Below, piece after piece: positions 25,175 through 36,031 of a DNA stretch of 37,210 nt. Both the position numbers and the translations under genes were made by a program. Source of the DNA: a virus. Lineage: Duplodnaviria; Heunggongvirae; Uroviricota; Caudoviricetes. How positions within the stretch are numbered: the first letter of the stretch is position 1; every line of letters starts with the position of its first letter. The notes under the pieces are model-generated. The model saw only the letters and a program-made list of their open reading frames with translations, made no database searches and had not been told where the DNA came from. Location of the stretch: the IMG/VR virus record IMGVR_UViG_2671180673_000011, positions 1 to 37,210 of that record; one strand, 5' to 3'.

Positions 25175-25915
25175 TTACTCAATAGGTTCAAACTCATCTT
25201 GAGGAATCAGCGTCGATTGACAGGCTTGGCTTAGTACCCCTGATAATTTACATAATAACCGATAGTTATGAGGAGCATCATCGCTAATCTTTTCGACCGT
25301 TAAAGTGATTGATTTTGGATCATCCAATAACATCTTCTTGATGTCATTACTTAAATACCTAGGGCAGTAACCAACGATTTCAGCTGGTTTATCTGCACGA
25401 ACGACAACAGCATCCCCATCGTATTCATTTTGAAGATCCAAGCAAAGACGCAAAATTTGCCCCGGTTTCAATTCAGATACACGAGCATTAGCTAAGCTAT
25501 TCAAGTAACCAAGTCCATGTAAGAAGAAAAAATGCTCAAAGTTACCATCAGAATCAAAATCAATTTTTTTGAAAATCTGCAGCTGATCAGTGCTTCGTAA
25601 GCCTCCCGAGCGAGCAAGAATATCGATAGGATTTACCTTATCTTCTTCAAATCCAAGCCATTTAATGAAACTCGGATACTCTGGACGTCTCGGTGATAAA
25701 AGGCGATTTTTAAAAAGAGGAAACAATTCTTCCGATACATAAGTTTCACGAACATCACTCATGCCGCTAAACTTTGTAAATTTAGAAGATTTAAGAGCAC
25801 CTTTGGTATACCTGAAAACATACCCCGATTTGCGCTCTTGCAAGTTACCAACAACATGCCAGTCTCTGGTATCTGGTGCCTGCCATGCGACGTAAACGGA
25901 GTTTGTATTAGTCAT
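25175..25915 (-). CDS. HipS-like / HIRAN-domain fusion protein (putative partner of the HipA-like kinase)
   Basis: N-terminal LFPLFKNRLLSP and DILARSGGL resemble HipA N-subdomain-1 (FFDNLLPDSP...); C-terminal LRLCLDLQNEYDGDAVVVRADKPAEIVGYCPRYL fits the HIRAN signature; ATGA overlap with the upstream kinase gene. Confidence 0.6.
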   Translation of the reverse strand: MTNTNSVYVAWQAPDTRDWHVVGNLQERKSGYVFRYTKGALKSSKFTKFSGMSDVRETYVSEELFPLFKNRLLSPRRPEYPSFIKWLGFEEDKVNPIDILARSGGLRSTDQLQIFKKIDFDSDGNFEHFFFLHGLGYLNSLANARVSELKPGQILRLCLDLQNEYDGDAVVVRADKPAEIVGYCPRYLSNDIKKMLLDDPKSITLTVEKISDDAPHNYRLLCKLSGVLSQACQSTLIPQDEFEPIE

Positions 25916-26826
25916 TCTAGTAACCTTCTGCGATTTTCCATTACCATTAACGTTGCAAATCTACGTGCACTGTCGGATATACACGATGAAGGCACTTGGT
26001 TAAACACATCTGTAATGGAATCTTCTGTTAAAACGCTCAACTTACCTAACCAATGGTCGCGAGCGGCAACTCTCCCTTCAACTGCATGTTGAAATGCTTC
26101 AACAGTCAGCAAGGGCTTTTTATCAGTTTTTGCTTTGAATAGCTCAGAGCGAGCTTTTCTTACAAAACATGGGATTTGTCGATTTTTATCTTTAGTATTA
26201 AGCCGTTCGTTACGCTCATCATCTAACATCTCCCTTCCTAAACTAGCGGCATGATCGTATGTTGGACACAAAAACTGCTCACCAGTTTCATTGTTAAGCA
26301 TGATTGCCCAATTTTCATGGTGGCGATCTTGATTACTCACAAGTGCATCGAGCATCAAATATCCACAAAATACATCTGCTGCATTTAGCCCGGTTAGATC
26401 ATATACACTCGGAGGAGGCTTGATAGATTCCCTATCTAAACAACCCAAGACCCTTGTGACAGTGTGTTCTCTGACCCTTACCGGCTTTTCCCCGGCTTGT
26501 AAAGGCCCAGGATAATCGAATGTCGAACTGTGAAGCACTTCATTTCCCATTACCATCCGGAAACCAGATGGAATGATATTCTGAGTCACCACACCGAATC
26601 GACCATTGTATCGCGCCAAATCATAGCTAGCATGTGGAATGTTAAGCAAATGACATAACTCAGCAGCACACTTTTCAGACCAATGCTCGCCAGTACCTGG
26701 CCTAGAGTACTTAAACAACTGCAAATTTACAGTGTCATCGGAGAAATAGAACCAAAACTTCTCTTTGGTTCCTAACTGTTCAAGATCGTTAGCTACGGGG
26801 CTAAGCTCTACCAATTGGTATGGCAT
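25912..26826 (-). CDS. HipA-like (HipT-type core) protein kinase
   Basis: 304 aa; GTKEKFWF (cf. HipA Gly-rich loop VAGAQEK), catalytic loop SNQDRHHENWAIM (cf. HipA GATDGHAKNF), CPTYD (cf. HipA TPFYD); no HipA N-subdomain-1. Confidence 0.7.
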   Translation of the reverse strand: MPYQLVELSPVANDLEQLGTKEKFWFYFSDDTVNLQLFKYSRPGTGEHWSEKCAAELCHLLNIPHASYDLARYNGRFGVVTQNIIPSGFRMVMGNEVLHSSTFDYPGPLQAGEKPVRVREHTVTRVLGCLDRESIKPPPSVYDLTGLNAADVFCGYLMLDALVSNQDRHHENWAIMLNNETGEQFLCPTYDHAASLGREMLDDERNERLNTKDKNRQIPCFVRKARSELFKAKTDKKPLLTVEAFQHAVEGRVAARDHWLGKLSVLTEDSITDVFNQVPSSCISDSARRFATLMVMENRRRLLE

Positions 26827-27787: not shown

Positions 27788-30160
27788 TTAATACAGGTTC
27801 CGCCACTGATCATCTTCCTGCAAACGCTGGTTCCGATAGAAGATACGCAGGCCTGCTCCTGACGGAATACTGCCTCCGCGAAGGAGTAAATCGACCTCTT
27901 TCTCGCTGCCATCAAATCCTCTGGACTTCAGCTCATACACGAGCTGCAGTCGCTGATGGTCTGTAATTCGCTGTTTGTAGTCTTTACGCCGTTTCGGTTT
28001 CACCAGGCGTAACCTTGCTGCCAGTTCCCGGCGCTCTTTTTTGCTCATACTGTGCAGGTAATCGTGCAACTCCTTGTCATCCATGCTGGTAATGTCCGTT
28101 CTGGGGTTCCCATCAGCTGATTTATCTTTCTCCTGTTGGTTCAAATTTTCAGCAAGGGGACAGTTATTGCCACGAGTCCAAGGGGCGCAAGCGCCCTGGT
28201 CGGCTGCCGCCTCCTGAACGTCAACGGCCTTACGAACCATTTTCCACTTCACTGCATGAGTGCAGATCTTGCCCTCTGCAATGGGTGACCAGATGCCATA
28301 AATACGAATACCGTGATCGCCATAGGCGGTTGGCTCTTCGTTGATTTCATAAGCGGTTCTGATGAGGTGATATTTGCGGGGAACCAGTACGCCGCCCTGC
28401 TTCATGATGTAGGTGGCAAAACAACCAGCATCAGCAGCAGCCAGGATGGCATCAAGGCGCGGGTTATCCAGTACCGGCGCACCTGCTTTTTTGTCACCCT
28501 GTTGCCTTGCCGCCTGACCAGCCAGCAATCGCAGTTCACGGTAAGCCTGACGCCCCGGAATGCCAAAGAAGCGGAATTGCTGAACACGATGCAGAGACGC
28601 CCAGGCATTAACGTATTCAGCGTTATCACGCAGGGATTTACCCGTTTCCTTACTGATCTCGCCAGCCAAACCACGCCCGTCAATATTCTTACTGATATAT
28701 TTCGCAATGTAGCTTGTCGGCGTTCCTTTGCGCGGGTTTATCAGCTCAGACTTAAAGCGTGGCCCCGTGTTATTGCCCAGCTCCTCGCGGTCTTCACGGA
28801 TGGCAAACTTACGCAACAATGCAGTAATGGCGCGGCGGTCTTTTTTGCGCATGAAACACAACAGGTGCCAGTGAACTGTGCCGTCATGATGCGGCTCAGC
28901 CACCCGCACGCCATACCAGCGCAACCCGGCTTTGTGCATAGCCTTACGAAATGCAGCAAACATGCCGACCAGATAATCGCTGCTTTGTCTTACTGTCGCG
29001 TTGGTCCAGGTCGGGTTTGGCCTGCCGTTATTTAGCGTGGAATGGAAACGTGACGGACAGGTGATGGTGTAGAAAACGGCGCAGTCACCACGCATTTCCG
29101 CGATAAGCTCCAGGCCTTTAACACAGGCCATCATCTCATTGCGGCGATGCGCCGGGTTGCTGCTGCTGGCGTTTACCACATCCTCCATGTCCAGCGTGTC
29201 GCCGTCTTCGTTCACCAGTTCATGAGAACGGAAAAACTCCAGCGACTTACGGCGCTGCTCACGTTTATGCATCACGGCTTCATAGCTGACATAAGGAGAT
29301 GCTTTTTTGCTGACCAGGCAGACAGCGCGCAACTGCTCTTCCCGCCATTCGCAACGCATCTTCCATAATTTCCGGTACCACCAGTCGGCGCACAACATAC
29401 GCGCCAGCGAACCCGGAATGAGTTCATAGGGCACGGGTTTACGGCGGTTTCTTTTCCGACGGAGTTGCTCAAACGCAGGCGGGATAACATCCAGACGCAG
29501 GGTTTCCGCTGCCACCTTTTCCCATGTCTTGCGGATTTCTTCTGGCTTAACGTCATCGGTGGCATACAAATCACCACAAGCTGCATCAAGGCACATGCTC
29601 ATATGCGCAGCGACAAGGGTAGACAGGCGCTTCACCTGATCCTGACTCATTTCAGGCAGGATAAGCAGGCCATCCAGCCCTTCATGGCTTGCCATAAAGC
29701 GAAAAGAAGCGGATAGCTGACTGTCGCGTACATGCTCCAGTCGTTCCAGACATGGCTTAATCGTCTCACGCAAATAGCGGGAATAAGCCTTTGGCCTGCC
29801 CAGGCTGCTGAAGTATTCAATACGTTGCATCAGCGGCTTGCTGATATGGGAAGGCTGGGCATTGACGTCCGCCAGAATGACCATATCTGGATTAAAACGC
29901 TGCTGCTCATGCGCCAGCTTTGCCCGACTAATGAGCTTATCCTGCTCCATTTCGCGCTGGACAGGATCACGGGATTCATTAAAGAAATAACGCTCCCAGA
30001 CCTGATCACTCAGTACCTCGCGGCGCAGGTGTTCCTGTTCGTTATCGGCAGCGTACAGAGCGATCAGGTTTGAAAGCGCAGAAACTGAAGATTGCTCTTC
30101 TGTCCCTACGTAAGGATTGATTGCTTTTTTCTCAGCATTCCAGGAATAGCTGTAGTTCAT
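27788..30160 (-). CDS. A: replication initiation endonuclease A
   Basis: Large ORF of P2 gpA type; start placed at ATG 30160 (MNYSYSWN) with GGAG upstream, overlapping the upstream stop as TAATG. Confidence 0.85.
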
Positions 30161-30990
30161 TACGCAATCTCCAGTTCGAGCTGTGATGGCTGCAAACCAT
30201 TCGACAGCCAATCAGAAACTGAAGGTGGGCGAACAGCTTCAATTGCACCTTTTAAAATTGCGCAACGGTTTTTCAGAATGACAGCTTTCAGCTCCTTTTC
30301 CGTCAGATTGCGCGAATACTCAGCCTCCTGAATAGCCCGCGTAAGCTCAGGATATTTGCTATTAAATTTGGGGACATTGCAGGCAAGATTTGTACTGTCG
30401 GCAGTCGCCAGTGGGTAATTTCCCAACACACGACCGTCAAGCATGCGCAAACCATGAACAGCTGTTTTGAAATTGTGTCGGCAATAAATTGCTTCAAAAG
30501 CGTCCTGCATACGACGATGCCAGTGCGCAGTTCTGATAGCCGCATATTCACCAGACGATCCAAAGCAGACACGAGGCCATTCACGACATAGCTCGATAAG
30601 CCGATCGATTGACTCGTGCAGATGCCAGACGGGAGTTGCCTTCCCGTAGAACATTTTCGGAACTTCGTTTATCAGGGCATCATTGCCACGTTCACCGCCG
30701 TCCACAACATCAGGAATGACAAAAAAAGCGACCTTAGGATGGTGGTAATAGTTCAGGAGCCATTTATAAAAATCACTCCAGTTAATTTTTAGCCCACGCA
30801 CCCATGCAGAAAATGCGCCGTTATCAATGCCGACGACCTGAGCGTGCTGAATGGACGCCGCAATCTGATCTGGTCGTACATAGGAGACGAAAGCGCCAGC
30901 TCCGCTCACCGCAATACGATGAACGTCGCCAGCACTTCCCCAGACAGGCGTCCCATGGAAATGATGAATTCCGTGGTGCATTTCTTTCAC
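30160..30990 (-). CDS. hypothetical protein coupled to Dam; possible TGT/DpdA-like fold (speculative)
   Basis: 276 aa, GTG start overlapping the Dam stop; HG-TPV and GIDNGAFS loosely recall tRNA-guanine transglycosylase motifs, but no Zn-binding Cys cluster. Confidence 0.5.
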
Positions 30991-31841
30991 ACTTGCACCC
31001 CGAAAATAACAGTAGAGTCACGTCCCCTACTAAAATCGGCACTAAACCAATTAGCAGATTTAGTGGCAATCATCTCTGTTGCAAATTTTCCCTCCCCCGC
31101 TGCAACGCCGATGCTGCGTTTCGCCCTGATGTAGTGGTGAGTGAAATTACGATAAAGAGACCGGGTCAAAGACGTGTCACTGTTAGAAACAATGACCGGA
31201 TGTCCTTCAGATGCTCGATGTTCAAGAACGGATGCCAGGTGATACTGGTCATCTTCAGTGAAACCATCAGTGTGATAGCCGGAAAACGTACCGTCATACG
31301 GCGGATCGCAATACACCACATCCCCCGCCTTCAACATCGCCAGCGTTTCATCAAAGCTGGCGCAGATAAACGTTGCCCGCTGGGCTTTTTCTGCAAATGC
31401 GCGAATTTCTTTTTCAGGGAAATACGGATTTTTATAATTACCGTAGGGAATGTTGAAATGCCCGCTCTTGTTATAGCGACATAAACCACGGTAACCGTGA
31501 CGATTGAGATACAGGAAATATACCGCTTTCATGAAATCAGTAATTTCAGTGGAGTAATTAAACTCCTGCCTTATGTTATAATAAGCCACCTCCCTGTTTG
31601 CGATCTCAAATAAAACTCTGGCGCGAGATATAAACGATTCACAATCAGCGGCAACCTTTTTATAGAGGTTGATTAAATCAGGATTAATATCCGCAACCAG
31701 ATAGCTGGGGTAATCCGTCTCCATCATCACAGCACAGGAACCCGCGAAAGGTTCAACCAGTCGCGGGCCAGCAGGAAGGTGTTTTTTCAGTTCGGACATT
31801 ACGGCGGTTTTATTTCCCGCCCATTTCAAGATGGTGCTCAT
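30987..31841 (-). CDS. dam: DNA adenine methyltransferase, Dam family
   Basis: ILKWAGNK N-terminal motif, FAGSCAV SAM-binding motif, DPPY catalytic motif; start ATG 31841 with GGAGG Shine-Dalgarno, ATGA overlap with upstream gene. Confidence 0.9.
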
Positions 31842-32065
31842 ACAGCACCTCCGTTGTAATGTTTGCCTTTCAGCTCTGCGATTTCCTGACATGTAATGCA
31901 AAGCTGCACACCCGGAATGGCACGGCGGCGTGCTGGCGGAATTGGCGCTTCACACTCAACGCAAAGCACGCGGGACACGCCCGGCGTTTTGGCACGGGCA
32001 GCACGGATATGGCGCTGGCGTTCTTCTTCAACGCGCTGCTGTACGAGATCCATTGCATCAGCCAT
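31838..32065 (-). CDS. TraR/DksA-family C4 zinc-finger protein
   Basis: 75 aa with CVECEAPIPPARRRAIPGVQLCITC (CxxC...CxxC). Confidence 0.75.
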   Translation of the reverse strand: MADAMDLVQQRVEEERQRHIRAARAKTPGVSRVLCVECEAPIPPARRRAIPGVQLCITCQEIAELKGKHYNGGAV

Positions 32066-32304
32066 TAGTGGATCTCCTGCGCTTCGTTCTGGATTGCTTC
32101 AGCAGTCACACGCAGCAGTTCTGCCGCTTCCACGTGGTTTAGCTGACGGGATGAGATATGACACGCCAGGCTATCAAGGCGAGCTGCCATTGCTTCAGCC
32201 CTTGCCCGGCGTTCTTCCAGACGAGCCTCTGTCAGTAAAATATTAAGCCCTGCGTCATCCGGTCCGGTTTTAGTCGTGAGGGTTTCAATATTACGCATAA
32301 TCAA
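32065..32304 (-). CDS. hypothetical early protein
   Basis: 79-aa ORF in the early operon, coding-strand continuity with neighbours. Confidence 0.55.
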   Translation of the reverse strand: MIMRNIETLTTKTGPDDAGLNILLTEARLEERRARAEAMAARLDSLACHISSRQLNHVEAAELLRVTAEAIQNEAQEIH

Positions 32305-33642: not shown

Positions 33643-33737
33643 GATGCAACATCTCCTATTGGCTTGTGGTGAGCCTGTAGTAATCGTGACAAGTACCCAA
33701 ATGGGGACAAAATTGATACTAGGATCGCAAAAGAGAT
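33643..33737. promoter_or_regulatory. lysis-lysogeny switch region (divergent apl and cI promoters)
   Basis: 95-bp AT-rich intergenic region between divergent apl and cI. Confidence 0.4.
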
Positions 33738-34334
33738 ATGTCAACATCAAAGTACCCAAATGAGATCAAAATAAATCCCAATAAAGGTGGTAAGGCTGCG
33801 ATTGAGCGATTAGTCGAAGCTTATGGCTTTACGACACGACAGGCTTTAGCTGATCACTTGGAAGTATCAAAAAGCACTCTGGCGAACAGGTATTTGCGGG
33901 ATACGTTTCCTGCAGACTGGATAATCCAATGTGCTCTTGAAACAGGAACCTCACTGAAATGGTTAACCACCGGGCAAGGCCTTAAGCAAAGCTCGCTGAC
34001 AGCAGCTACAGAAGAGCTTGCCAAGTTTCGCCTTACCGCAGGCAAAATGATTGAAGATGGTTCATATGTCTTCGATTCATCATTTCTTCCTGCAAATCTT
34101 TCATCACCAATTGTTATTCAGGATGGGCTCGTCACATACATTTGTGATCAAAAATTTTCTGAAGTACTTGATGGGCACTGGTTAATCAACATCGACGGAA
34201 CCTATTCCATTCGAAAAATCACAAAGCTTCCAAAAGGTATGATTAAAATTACAAGTACAGAGAATAGCTTTGAATGTGCATTTTCTGATATTGAAGTAGT
34301 TGCTTGTATAAGAAGTACAATAGTTTCAAATTAA
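33738..34334 (+). CDS. cI: CI immunity repressor (186 type)
   Basis: 198 aa with N-terminal HTH (FTTRQALADHLEVSKSTLANRY) and C-terminal domain, upstream of int. Confidence 0.8.
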   Translation: MSTSKYPNEIKINPNKGGKAAIERLVEAYGFTTRQALADHLEVSKSTLANRYLRDTFPADWIIQCALETGTSLKWLTTGQGLKQSSLTAATEELAKFRLTAGKMIEDGSYVFDSSFLPANLSSPIVIQDGLVTYICDQKFSEVLDGHWLINIDGTYSIRKITKLPKGMIKITSTENSFECAFSDIEVVACIRSTIVSN

Positions 34335-34354: not shown

Positions 34355-36031
34355 ATGAATTCATTTTCCATCGTTATATTCTTATTAGCATTTCTCGCCC
34401 CCATTCTAGCTGTAATATTATTTAAGCAAAGCAAAAAACATAAAGCGGCTATAAATACCTTGACAGCTAACAACATAGCCCTTTCCAACCAACTGAAAGA
34501 AAATCAAGAAGAATTAGCACAGACTGTACGAGATCTATCAGAGCTTGAAGGACGAGCTGCGCCATTATGGCAATACGCAGAATTGCACAGCGCAGTGATG
34601 GAAGCAGAGAATAAGATAAAAAATGCAGACTCAATAGCCAGGCAAAAAATAGAAGAAGCCCAAATAAAGGCTGCTAAGACAGTAAACGAAGCAAATTATC
34701 AAGCTCAGATAAAAATAAGCAACGCTAATAGCGAAGCTATAGCAATTACTAAAGACGCTCGCGATGCACGCCTGAAAGCTAAAGAACGTCTTGATAATGC
34801 CAATAGTAAAGCAAATGAGCTGATCTCAAATGCTAATGACAATGCAGTGAAAATTATTTCCGATGCAGAAGAAAGAGCAAAAGAGATTGCTGGTTCAGCA
34901 TATGAAGCTAAAGAGTTTGCAGAAAAATATGAAGCAGTTGCCAAATCAATGAAAAATAAAATTGAAGGTTATGGTGATGAATGGATCATCCCTAACCGTA
35001 GCGTTCTCGATGAATTGGCAGAAAATTATGAGTTTACAGATGCAGGTAAGGAATTACAAAAAGCCAGGGAGTTAACAAAATCATTAATAAAAACTAATAA
35101 AGCTGCTTCGTGTGATTATGTTGAACAAAACAGGCGTAATACTGCTATCAACTTTGTTTTAGATGCCTTCAATGGAAGAGTTGACAGTATTTTATCAAAA
35201 GTCAAACACCACAATTTTGGAAAACTTTCCCAAGAGATAAAAGATGCGTTTCAACTTGTAAATTACAATGGTTCTGCCTTTAGGTCCGCAAAAATAAGTG
35301 ACATCTATCTTCAAGCTCGACTCAACGAGCTAAAATGGGGAGTTGCAGTTAATGAAATTATGCTCGAAGAAAAAGAAGAGCAAAGAAGGATTAAAGAACA
35401 ACTTCGTGAAGAGGAAAGAGCTCGTAGGGAGTATGAAAAAGCGATAAAAGAAGCTGAAAAAGAAGAGAAAGCTATTCAGCAAGCTATAAATAAAGCAACA
35501 AAAGAGCTTATGCTTGCAAATGAAGAACAACGCTTAGCTTTAGAGCAAAAAATAGCTGAACTACAGTTAAAATATGAAGAAGCTGAAGCTAAAAACCAAC
35601 GAGCTATTTCTATGGCTCAACAAACTAGATCAGGCCACGTTTATATAATTAGTAATATTGGCTCATTTGGCGAAGATGTATATAAAATTGGAATGACACG
35701 CCGCCTTGAACCACTTGATCGTGTTCGTGAACTCGGTGATGCTAGTGTTCCTTTTTCGTTCGATGTTCATGCGATGATTTATAGTGATGATGCACCATCA
35801 TTAGAAAATCATCTGCATAAAGTCTTCAACGAAAAACAGGTCAATAAAATTAACTCACGAAAAGAGTTTTTCAACGTAAATATTAAAGAAATTAAGTCTG
35901 TTATTGAAGATATGAACATCAACGCACAATGGACAATGTTTGCGGAAGCGAAAGAATATAGAGAGTCACTGGCGATTGAGCAAGAGCGCAAAGCAGCAAC
36001 TTCCGCCAACGATGAACTGCATGTTGCTTAG
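34355..36031 (+). CDS. membrane-anchored coiled-coil protein with C-terminal T5orf172/MUG113-like (GIY-YIG-like) domain
   Basis: 558 aa; N-terminal TM helix (IVIFLLAFLAPILAVILF), about 350 aa of K/E/A-rich coiled coil, then GHVYIISNIGSFGEDVYKIGMTRRLEPLDRVREL...LHKVF...EFFNV; strongly AT-rich; AAAGGA Shine-Dalgarno. Confidence 0.7.
   Translation: MNSFSIVIFLLAFLAPILAVILFKQSKKHKAAINTLTANNIALSNQLKENQEELAQTVRDLSELEGRAAPLWQYAELHSAVMEAENKIKNADSIARQKIEEAQIKAAKTVNEANYQAQIKISNANSEAIAITKDARDARLKAKERLDNANSKANELISNANDNAVKIISDAEERAKEIAGSAYEAKEFAEKYEAVAKSMKNKIEGYGDEWIIPNRSVLDELAENYEFTDAGKELQKARELTKSLIKTNKAASCDYVEQNRRNTAINFVLDAFNGRVDSILSKVKHHNFGKLSQEIKDAFQLVNYNGSAFRSAKISDIYLQARLNELKWGVAVNEIMLEEKEEQRRIKEQLREEERARREYEKAIKEAEKEEKAIQQAINKATKELMLANEEQRLALEQKIAELQLKYEEAEAKNQRAISMAQQTRSGHVYIISNIGSFGEDVYKIGMTRRLEPLDRVRELGDASVPFSFDVHAMIYSDDAPSLENHLHKVFNEKQVNKINSRKEFFNVNIKEIKSVIEDMNINAQWTMFAEAKEYRESLAIEQERKAATSANDELHVA

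Follow-up and report, generated by a model that had tools for sequence, protein, structure and literature searches.

The window analysed here is the whole 37,210-nucleotide (nt) stretch of IMG/VR virus record IMGVR_UViG_2671180673_000011 (Caudoviricetes). It is a P2/186-like prophage of Escherichia coli, collinear with the prophage of strain AR_0017 at 94-98% identity. The subject of this report is an open reading frame (ORF) of 276 amino acids (aa), which lies between a Dam methyltransferase gene and the replication gene A and carries the RefSeq label 'hypothetical'. Its product very probably belongs to the DpdA branch of the tRNA-guanine transglycosylase (TGT) superfamily. The early operon, encoded on the minus strand, has the order CII, Fil, DUF5347, DUF2732, TraR/DksA-like, Dam, 276-aa ORF and gpA. 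The features of this region are as follows:

27788-30160, minus strand: replication initiator gpA (nicking endonuclease), 790 aa (PF05840, 8e-128; PHROG 91)
30160-30990, minus strand: putative DpdA-family (TGT-superfamily) DNA-guanine transglycosylase of the 'singleton DpdA' clade, 276 aa (PHROG 887; profile alignment)
30987-31841, minus strand: Dam-family (D12 class) N6-adenine DNA methyltransferase, 284 aa (EPFAGS and DPPY motifs; PF02086, TIGR00571)
31838-32065, minus strand: TraR/DksA-type C4 zinc-finger protein, 75 aa (PF01258, 4.4e-11; TIGR02419, 67 bits; PHROG 54)
32065-32304, minus strand: DUF2732 gene of the early operon, upstream of the TraR/DksA-like gene
30085-31066, no strand: mosaic module of ~980 bp (blastn against the Dam-only prophage L097)
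33716-33744, minus strand: promoter-like site TTGACA-17-TAGTAT (consensus match), facing away from the CI repressor gene

The four genes from TraR/DksA-like to gpA are chained by start/stop overlaps, with the strand read directly, and the junctions lie just upstream of and up to A exactly as an initial annotation of this DNA had described them. The TGA stop of the TraR/DksA-like gene overlaps the Dam ATG (ATGA at 31841-31838), the Dam TGA stop overlaps the GTG start of the 276-aa ORF (GTGA at 30990-30987), and the TAA stop of this ORF overlaps the gpA ATG (TAATG at 30162-30158). The earlier call of the first gene as TraR-like likewise agrees with its PF01258 and TIGR02419 matches. Four-base overlaps are ordinary in phage operons and in themselves unremarkable, and Dam and A are joined likewise in Dam-only relatives. 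PGAP places the start of the 276-aa ORF three codons later, at ATG 30981, giving a protein of 273 aa (WP_001420002.1). The overlapping GTG is favoured because homologues lacking the internal Met align from codon 1; both starts are within coupling distance of the Dam stop.

The family assignment of the 276-aa protein is carried mainly by profile comparisons. The protein matched PHROG 887 ('queuine tRNA-ribosyltransferase') with an E value of 6.5e-96, and all named matches in BFVD were phage queuine tRNA-ribosyltransferases. A tblastn search returned 107 phage records, among them SEN1 (75% identity, 1e-138), MED16 (54%, 2e-89), HK106 (38%, 2e-54), PEAT2 (36%), SE131 (36%) and 7-11 (34-36%, 9e-50); the homologues of the Salmonella P2-like phages SEN1, SW9 and SI22 all showed 75% identity. 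Viral contigs were scanned with a 23-sequence alignment, and an exhaustive profile search yielded 808 clusters (50% identity) at E values up to 0.001. Exactly six residues (D56, D94, H123, H179, D198 and S199) were invariant in 67 homologues of 26-84% identity. When the profile of these 67 sequences was compared by hhalign with an 18-sequence alignment of the DpdA1 family of phage CAjan, a probability of 98.5% was obtained (E 1.4e-15, 169 columns); a closer 23-sequence alignment reached 90% against the same family. The comparison pairs D56 with D63, H123 with H132, H179 with H187, and D198-S199 with D206-S207, and it brings together the motifs IDNGAFS and LDSGAFS, the strand-5 His, the strand-7 H-G and the strand-8 D-S. 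Both catalytic Asp motifs are present, D56 in IDNGAF and D198 in ADST; their aligned counterparts, D63 and D206, are invariant in the CAjan family. The register at the strand-4 Asp is uncertain, because hhalign sets D94 opposite CAjan S102 and CAjan D105 opposite position 97 of the window protein. The initial annotation had offered a TGT/DpdA assignment as speculative; the PHROG and hhalign results and the presence of the SEN1 orthologue in a published DpdA list indicate that it had named the right family, and its mention of a second modification enzyme as an alternative also fits this ORF.

The fold predicted by AlphaFold2, at a predicted local distance difference test (pLDDT) score of 83.7, is a TGT-like triosephosphate isomerase (TIM) barrel, in which eight beta/alpha strands are followed by a helical C-terminal tail. 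The invariant residues sit after strands 3, 4, 5, 7 and 8 of the predicted barrel, the same strand order as D95, D130, H181, L236 and D256 of Salmonella DpdA. The substitutions D95A and D256A abolish guanine exchange in the bacterial enzyme (PMC10164549), and D56 and D198 would be the counterparts of these two residues in the 7UI4 structure. A Foldseek search of the PDB with the predicted model returned generic TIM barrels, with ArcTGT at rank 11; the closest structural match of the model was Cap10, which binds a 7-amido-7-deazaguanine adduct.

Conventional domain searches are largely silent on this family. Pfam and NCBIfam scans of the 276-aa ORF found nothing relevant, PADLOC holds no family for it, and PF01702 was not found by a Pfam scan of the 67 family members, the CAjan and 7-11 DpdA proteins and SEN1 gp38. 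Searches of PDB sequences by phmmer and hmmsearch, with the single protein and with the 23- and 67-sequence profiles, gave chance matches only, and CAjan DpdA itself has no phmmer match in the PDB. Since the validated CAjan DpdA is equally without a Pfam or PDB match, this silence of HMMER does not speak against the DpdA assignment. There is an annotation gap here, in that no Pfam or NCBIfam model detects either the 276-aa protein or the validated enzyme. Against one E. coli Tgt sequence, the family profile reached a non-significant 0.8% in hhalign. None of the 67 homologues has the CxCxxC zinc motif, nor is any Cys conserved throughout the family, which bears out the earlier remark that a zinc-binding Cys cluster is missing. 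The absence is no argument against DpdA, because the 18 sequences of the CAjan family also lack CxCxxC; the zinc site therefore marks TGT and bacterial DpdA rather than phage DpdA.

The closest known relatives of the protein belong to the 'singleton' clade, that is, phages with DpdA but no preQ0 synthesis genes. SEN1 gp38 (YP_009217891) was listed as a DpdA-only phage gene in Supplementary Data 1 of Hutinet 2019, together with those of 7-11, HK106, PEAT2 and SE131, while MED16 is absent from the list (PMC6884629). In the same survey singleton DpdAs formed the largest group of DpdA-carrying phages (76 of 182), and the authors noted that further work is needed on whether they have diverged in function (PMC6884629). 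The significant tblastn matches of the window protein to 7-11, SEN1, HK106, PEAT2, SE131 and MED16 place it in this group. The SEN1 relative having been catalogued as DpdA in 2019, the window gene is a further DpdA of that kind; no paper was found on the P2-like version of E. coli or on its occurrence beside Dam.

SEN1 gp38 and SW9 gp39, from P2-like Salmonella phages of the genus Eganvirus, are both 276 aa long and 75% identical to the window protein over 267-269 residues. In both phages the gene is directly upstream of gpA in the early operon and overlaps it, as in the window. In SEN1, however, the upstream neighbour is a DUF5405 gene instead of Dam, and the downstream gpA is of a different lineage, with ~34% identity to the window gpA. 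The DpdA of Pantoea phage vB_PagS_MED16 (gp38, 54% identity) is likewise a singleton without preQ0 genes and falls in the same CLANS cluster, 'DpdA/TGT_1', in which its only viral branch-mates are SEN1 gp38 and SW9 gp39 (PMC8306585); by HHpred it matches the T. maritima TGT structure 2ASH at 99.18% (PMC8306585). MED16 also encodes an adenine methylase, as the window does, but it is a lytic siphovirus without gpA, and its methylase belongs to the PF05869 family and is not adjacent to DpdA, unlike the adjoining Dam of the temperate P2-like phage in the window.

More distant systems differ in their accompanying genes. CAjan DpdA (DpdA1, Queuovirinae) is related to the window protein at the profile level, with common D-[SN]-G-A-F-S, H, H-G and D-S motifs and no CxCxxC in either; pairwise similarity is only ~20%, with no relation between the C-terminal regions. 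CAjan carries its own FolE, QueD, QueE, QueC and a preQ0 transporter next to dpdA, and ~32% of its G is replaced. Bacterial DpdA of the Salmonella Montevideo Dpd restriction-modification island (7UI4) has 413 aa, a structural zinc site and DpdA-specific insertions and requires the ATPase DpdB, whereas the window has neither DpdB nor DpdC.

The annotation of the 98%-identical prophage contains no Que gene, and the parts in which the window differs encode PDC-M03, PD-Lambda-1, CI and an integrase; the base must therefore be supplied by the host. E. coli makes preQ0. Expressed alone in E. coli, the DpdA of phage 9g inserts dPreQ0 from the host pool into plasmid DNA, and deletion of dpdA from CAjan abolishes its dPreQ0 (PMC6884629). 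Two members of the clade are linked to the 7-deazaguanine pathway. In the Flyfo siphovirus Tbat1_6 (L096:3525-4783) the gene for a YhhQ/Vut_1 transporter (PF02592, 4.7e-10) precedes that of a 61%-identical homologue by 42 nt, with no other Que genes in the examined stretch; YhhQ is a preQ0 transporter (PMC6884629). In the 335-aa protein P0331 (L103:2840-3847, JGI metagenome 3300041077 contig) a QueD/PTPS domain (PF01242, 1.2e-24) is fused to a member of the DpdA clade, a domain combination that ties the clade to the preQ0 pathway.

DNA of two relatives has been analysed for modified bases. Salmonella phage 7-11 DNA contained 50 molecules of dADG, the deoxynucleoside of 7-amido-7-deazaguanine (ADG), per 10^6 nt, or 0.02% of G (PMC6884629). 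For MED16 the values were 354 dADG (~0.13% of G) and 633 N6-methyldeoxyadenosine (m6dA) per 10^6 nt, with its dADG making no visible difference to the restriction enzymes tried (PMC8306585).

From these lines of evidence, the 276-aa protein is best read as a singleton DpdA-type DNA-guanine transglycosylase that places a sparse, host-supplied 7-deazaguanine mark in phage DNA, a reading that we consider reasonably probable as a whole. The DNA-modifying mechanism itself is held with nearly the same moderate confidence. DpdA would share an early lytic transcript with Dam and gpA, so that it would be made only after induction or infection. The TTGACA-17-TAGTAT site at 33716-33744 is the sole minus-strand match resembling a sigma-70 promoter within 34000-27400, and no minus-strand promoter-like site lies between the CI-facing promoter and gpA; judging by the P2/186-type gene order and the consensus match, early lytic transcription of the Dam/DpdA/A operon probably starts at this TTGACA site. 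In the double-displacement mechanism common to TGT and DpdA, D198 would attack C1' and guanine would be expelled, with D56 acting as general acid/base and D94 and H123 reading the base. A 7-deazaguanine from the host Que pathway (E. coli FolE, QueD, QueE and QueC) would then be inserted. By analogy with MED16 and 7-11, the expected outcome is a sparse and probably site-specific mark, with ~0.02-0.13% of G present as dADG and no bulk replacement. Dam would independently methylate the adenine of GATC from the same operon, and replicating phage DNA would thus receive two different marks, most plausibly blunting host nucleases.

Several observations weigh against this interpretation. The virion-DNA data come from MED16 and 7-11, which are relatives outside the exact P2-type subclade. 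A protective role is unproven, because the restriction of MED16 DNA was unaffected by dADG and the 7-11 level is only 0.02% of G. The nucleoside in both relatives is dADG, not dPreQ0, and a DpdC-like nitrile hydratase is not apparent, which leaves the inserted base uncertain; it may be preQ0 that is later hydrated, or ADG directly. The mapping of residues to 7UI4 follows from order and motif, with no superposition, and the link to cellular TGT is too weak for HMMER against Pfam and the PDB and for hhalign against the single E. coli Tgt sequence. In both tested singletons dADG was found in traces only, and no protection against the restriction enzymes tried could be measured.

A variant of the favoured interpretation is that the singleton clade is not a preQ0 insertase at all but inserts the 7-amido base ADG, an intermediate of host QueC, at a few defined sites without a DpdC-type hydratase. 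Hints in this direction are the dADG of both tested relatives, the top structural match to Cap10, and the linkage to gpA across divergent gpA lineages; the variant is possible, though we consider it unlikely. If true, the mark would be a sparse signal (for self-recognition, evasion of one defence, or control of replication or packaging by gpA) rather than a bulk shield, and in Dam-carrying variants it might sit beside the N6-methyladenine of GATC.

The enzyme might also act on a target other than phage DNA, either host tRNA or a protein, the latter as with the TGT-like Cap10, which is associated with a 7-amido-7-deazaguanine-protein adduct. The Cap9/Cap10 module of type IV CBASS (cyclic oligonucleotide-based antiphage signalling system) combines TGT-like Cap10 with QueC-like Cap9 and a CD-NTase, and the window contains neither a Cap9/QueC-like nor a CD-NTase partner. 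Moreover, low-level dADG is present in the DNA of both tested relatives, whose hosts can make preQ0, and the profile similarity is to a DNA-modifying phage DpdA. Such a target is improbable.

The genomic position of the gene raises a further alternative, namely that the protein is a replication accessory of gpA, a DNA-binding TIM barrel at the origin or nick site for which base exchange is not the main job. Gene order was compared in 90 related loci, consisting of SEN1, 9 species-representative genomes and 80 IMG/VR contigs that were not de-replicated. In 85 of these loci gpA followed the gene directly, in most cases with an overlap of the two. The linkage extended to loci where the DpdA-like protein retains 70-76% identity but gpA no more than 29-36%, as an accessory role would suggest. 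Nevertheless, the catalytic Asp/His set is invariant in the 67 homologues, down to 26% identity, and homologues away from any gpA occur in the lambdoid/P22-like nin region, MED16, 7-11 and Tbat1_6; most E. coli P2-like prophages, for their part, replicate without a DpdA gene. An accessory role of this kind is very unlikely. The linkage may instead have arisen because the end of the early operon is a preferred site of insertion, or because the gene is expressed together with the replication functions.

The upstream partner is clearly a Dam-family methyltransferase, as proposed in the initial annotation. It scores 253.6 bits against PF02086 (cut-off 22; 3.2e-75) and 316 bits against TIGR00571 (cut-off 115), its translation shows the AdoMet motif as EPFAGS and the catalytic DPPY within CDPPYDG, and it matches the E. 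coli Dam structure in the PDB (2g1p) with an E value of 3.5e-73. Identity to E. coli K-12 Dam is 47% over 262 residues and the recognition-loop motif LYLNR.GY.GLCRYN is kept, which suggests GATC specificity. The window holds 127 GATC sites against 124.6 expected, neither a deficit nor an excess, so that this specificity is inferred and not shown; the idea of GATC avoidance or enrichment was rejected. The protein differs from the host Dam in falling below the NCBIfam equivalog cut-off (287 against 441 bits), and its top PADLOC model is 'orphan methyltransferase'. The initial annotation had remarked on a phage copy in a host that has its own Dam. The copy is real, but it is very common here: the same allele family lies between TraR and A of P2/186-like prophages in 1,231 of 5,426 complete E. 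coli genomes (~23%).

Dam and DpdA are separate modules, no obligate pair. Among the 5,426 complete genomes, ~1,130 carry this Dam without DpdA, and the commonest arrangement is TraR > Dam > A, as in prophage L097. The DpdA gene was found in 102-103 genomes, always at 99% identity or higher and between Dam and A in every listed row; a DpdA-bearing prophage is present in the widely used laboratory strain E. coli ATCC 8739, with the module at NC_010468.1 3,052,390-3,053,220. By blastn, the similarity of the window to prophage L097 ends at 31066 and restarts at 30085. The intervening ~980-bp module (31066-30085) brings in the complete DpdA gene and substitutes its own sequence for the final ~26 codons of Dam and the opening ~25 codons of A; the exchange of the last ~26 Dam codons thus distinguishes the DpdA-carrying variant from the other P2/186-like prophage Dam genes. 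In the 90 loci described above, the upstream neighbour of the DpdA gene was Dam in 50, DUF5405 in 26 and TraR directly in 10, the remaining 4 having a non-P2 context.

This distribution bears on a model of Dam and the DpdA-like protein as an obligate pair of enzymes that modify a common site, such as the G and A of GATC. The model draws on the overlapping start and stop codons, on an adjacency of the two genes that recurs in DpdA identity classes of 99, 82-83, 79, 74 and 70%, on the adenine methylase that MED16 likewise encodes besides DpdA, and on GA being a known DpdA motif (CAjan and iggy DpdA). In Rosenbergiella metrosideri (L012:6001-7686), a 62%-identical DpdA homologue in a non-P2 context is followed ~110 nt downstream by a Dam-like gene with 34% identity to the window Dam, in reverse order, which may be counted on the same side. 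Set against these points, ~1,130 genomes have this Dam without DpdA, DpdA comes after DUF5405 or TraR with no Dam in 36 of the 90 loci, and the MED16 methylase is of another family (PF05869) with five genes between it and DpdA. The overlap behind the earlier description of Dam as translationally coupled to its partner is real, whereas an obligate pairing is very improbable.

A single Dam::DpdA fusion was encountered. The 421-aa protein P0011 (L104:4001-5266, Logan SRR27214370 contig) arises in an otherwise identical prophage from an in-frame deletion that joins Dam 1-193 to DpdA 45-276. Seen on a single contig, the deletion costs Dam its C-terminus and DpdA its N-terminus and has probably left both enzymes inactive; this lone event was rejected as Rosetta-stone evidence for a joint Dam-DpdA system, and it counts against an obligate one.

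The restriction-endonuclease partner that the initial annotation had listed as another option, forming a type II restriction-modification pair with Dam, is suggested only by the position beside a methyltransferase and has a negligible likelihood, as no nuclease family matches in Pfam, NCBIfam, PHROGs or PADLOC, the predicted fold is a TGT-like TIM barrel, and the Dam is modelled by PADLOC as an orphan enzyme that usually occurs without the 276-aa gene.

For the favoured interpretation of the protein as a DNA-modifying singleton DpdA, this E. coli prophage offers a tractable test case, combining an inducible temperate phage, a genetically easy host and ~100 complete genomes. In addition, natural isogenic-like relatives differ only by the missing ~1-kb DpdA module.

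Some minor observations concern the same operon and the remainder of the prophage. At 31010-31032 (minus strand), a hairpin with a T-run behind it lies within the 3' end of Dam, on the boundary of the ~980-bp module and ~20 nt ahead of the DpdA start codon. The idea of a terminator separating the two genes was rejected, there being one weak hairpin and no more terminator-like sites than in shuffled sequences. WonAB surfaced as a literature lead and proved unrelated. A two-gene cassette at 25175-26826 (minus strand) occupies a variable spot between the portal gene and a DinI-like gene and encodes a HipA-like kinase of 304 aa (PDC-M03A, E 2e-122) and a HIRAN-domain protein of 246 aa (PDC-M03B, E 7e-93); the AR_0017 prophage (98% identity) has a different gene at this spot. 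Between the CI repressor and integrase genes, 34355-36031 (plus strand) encodes a 558-aa protein with DUF4041 and T5orf172/MUG113 domains that matches PD-Lambda-1 in PADLOC (E 1.4e-119) and is probably carried by the prophage as anti-phage defence cargo.

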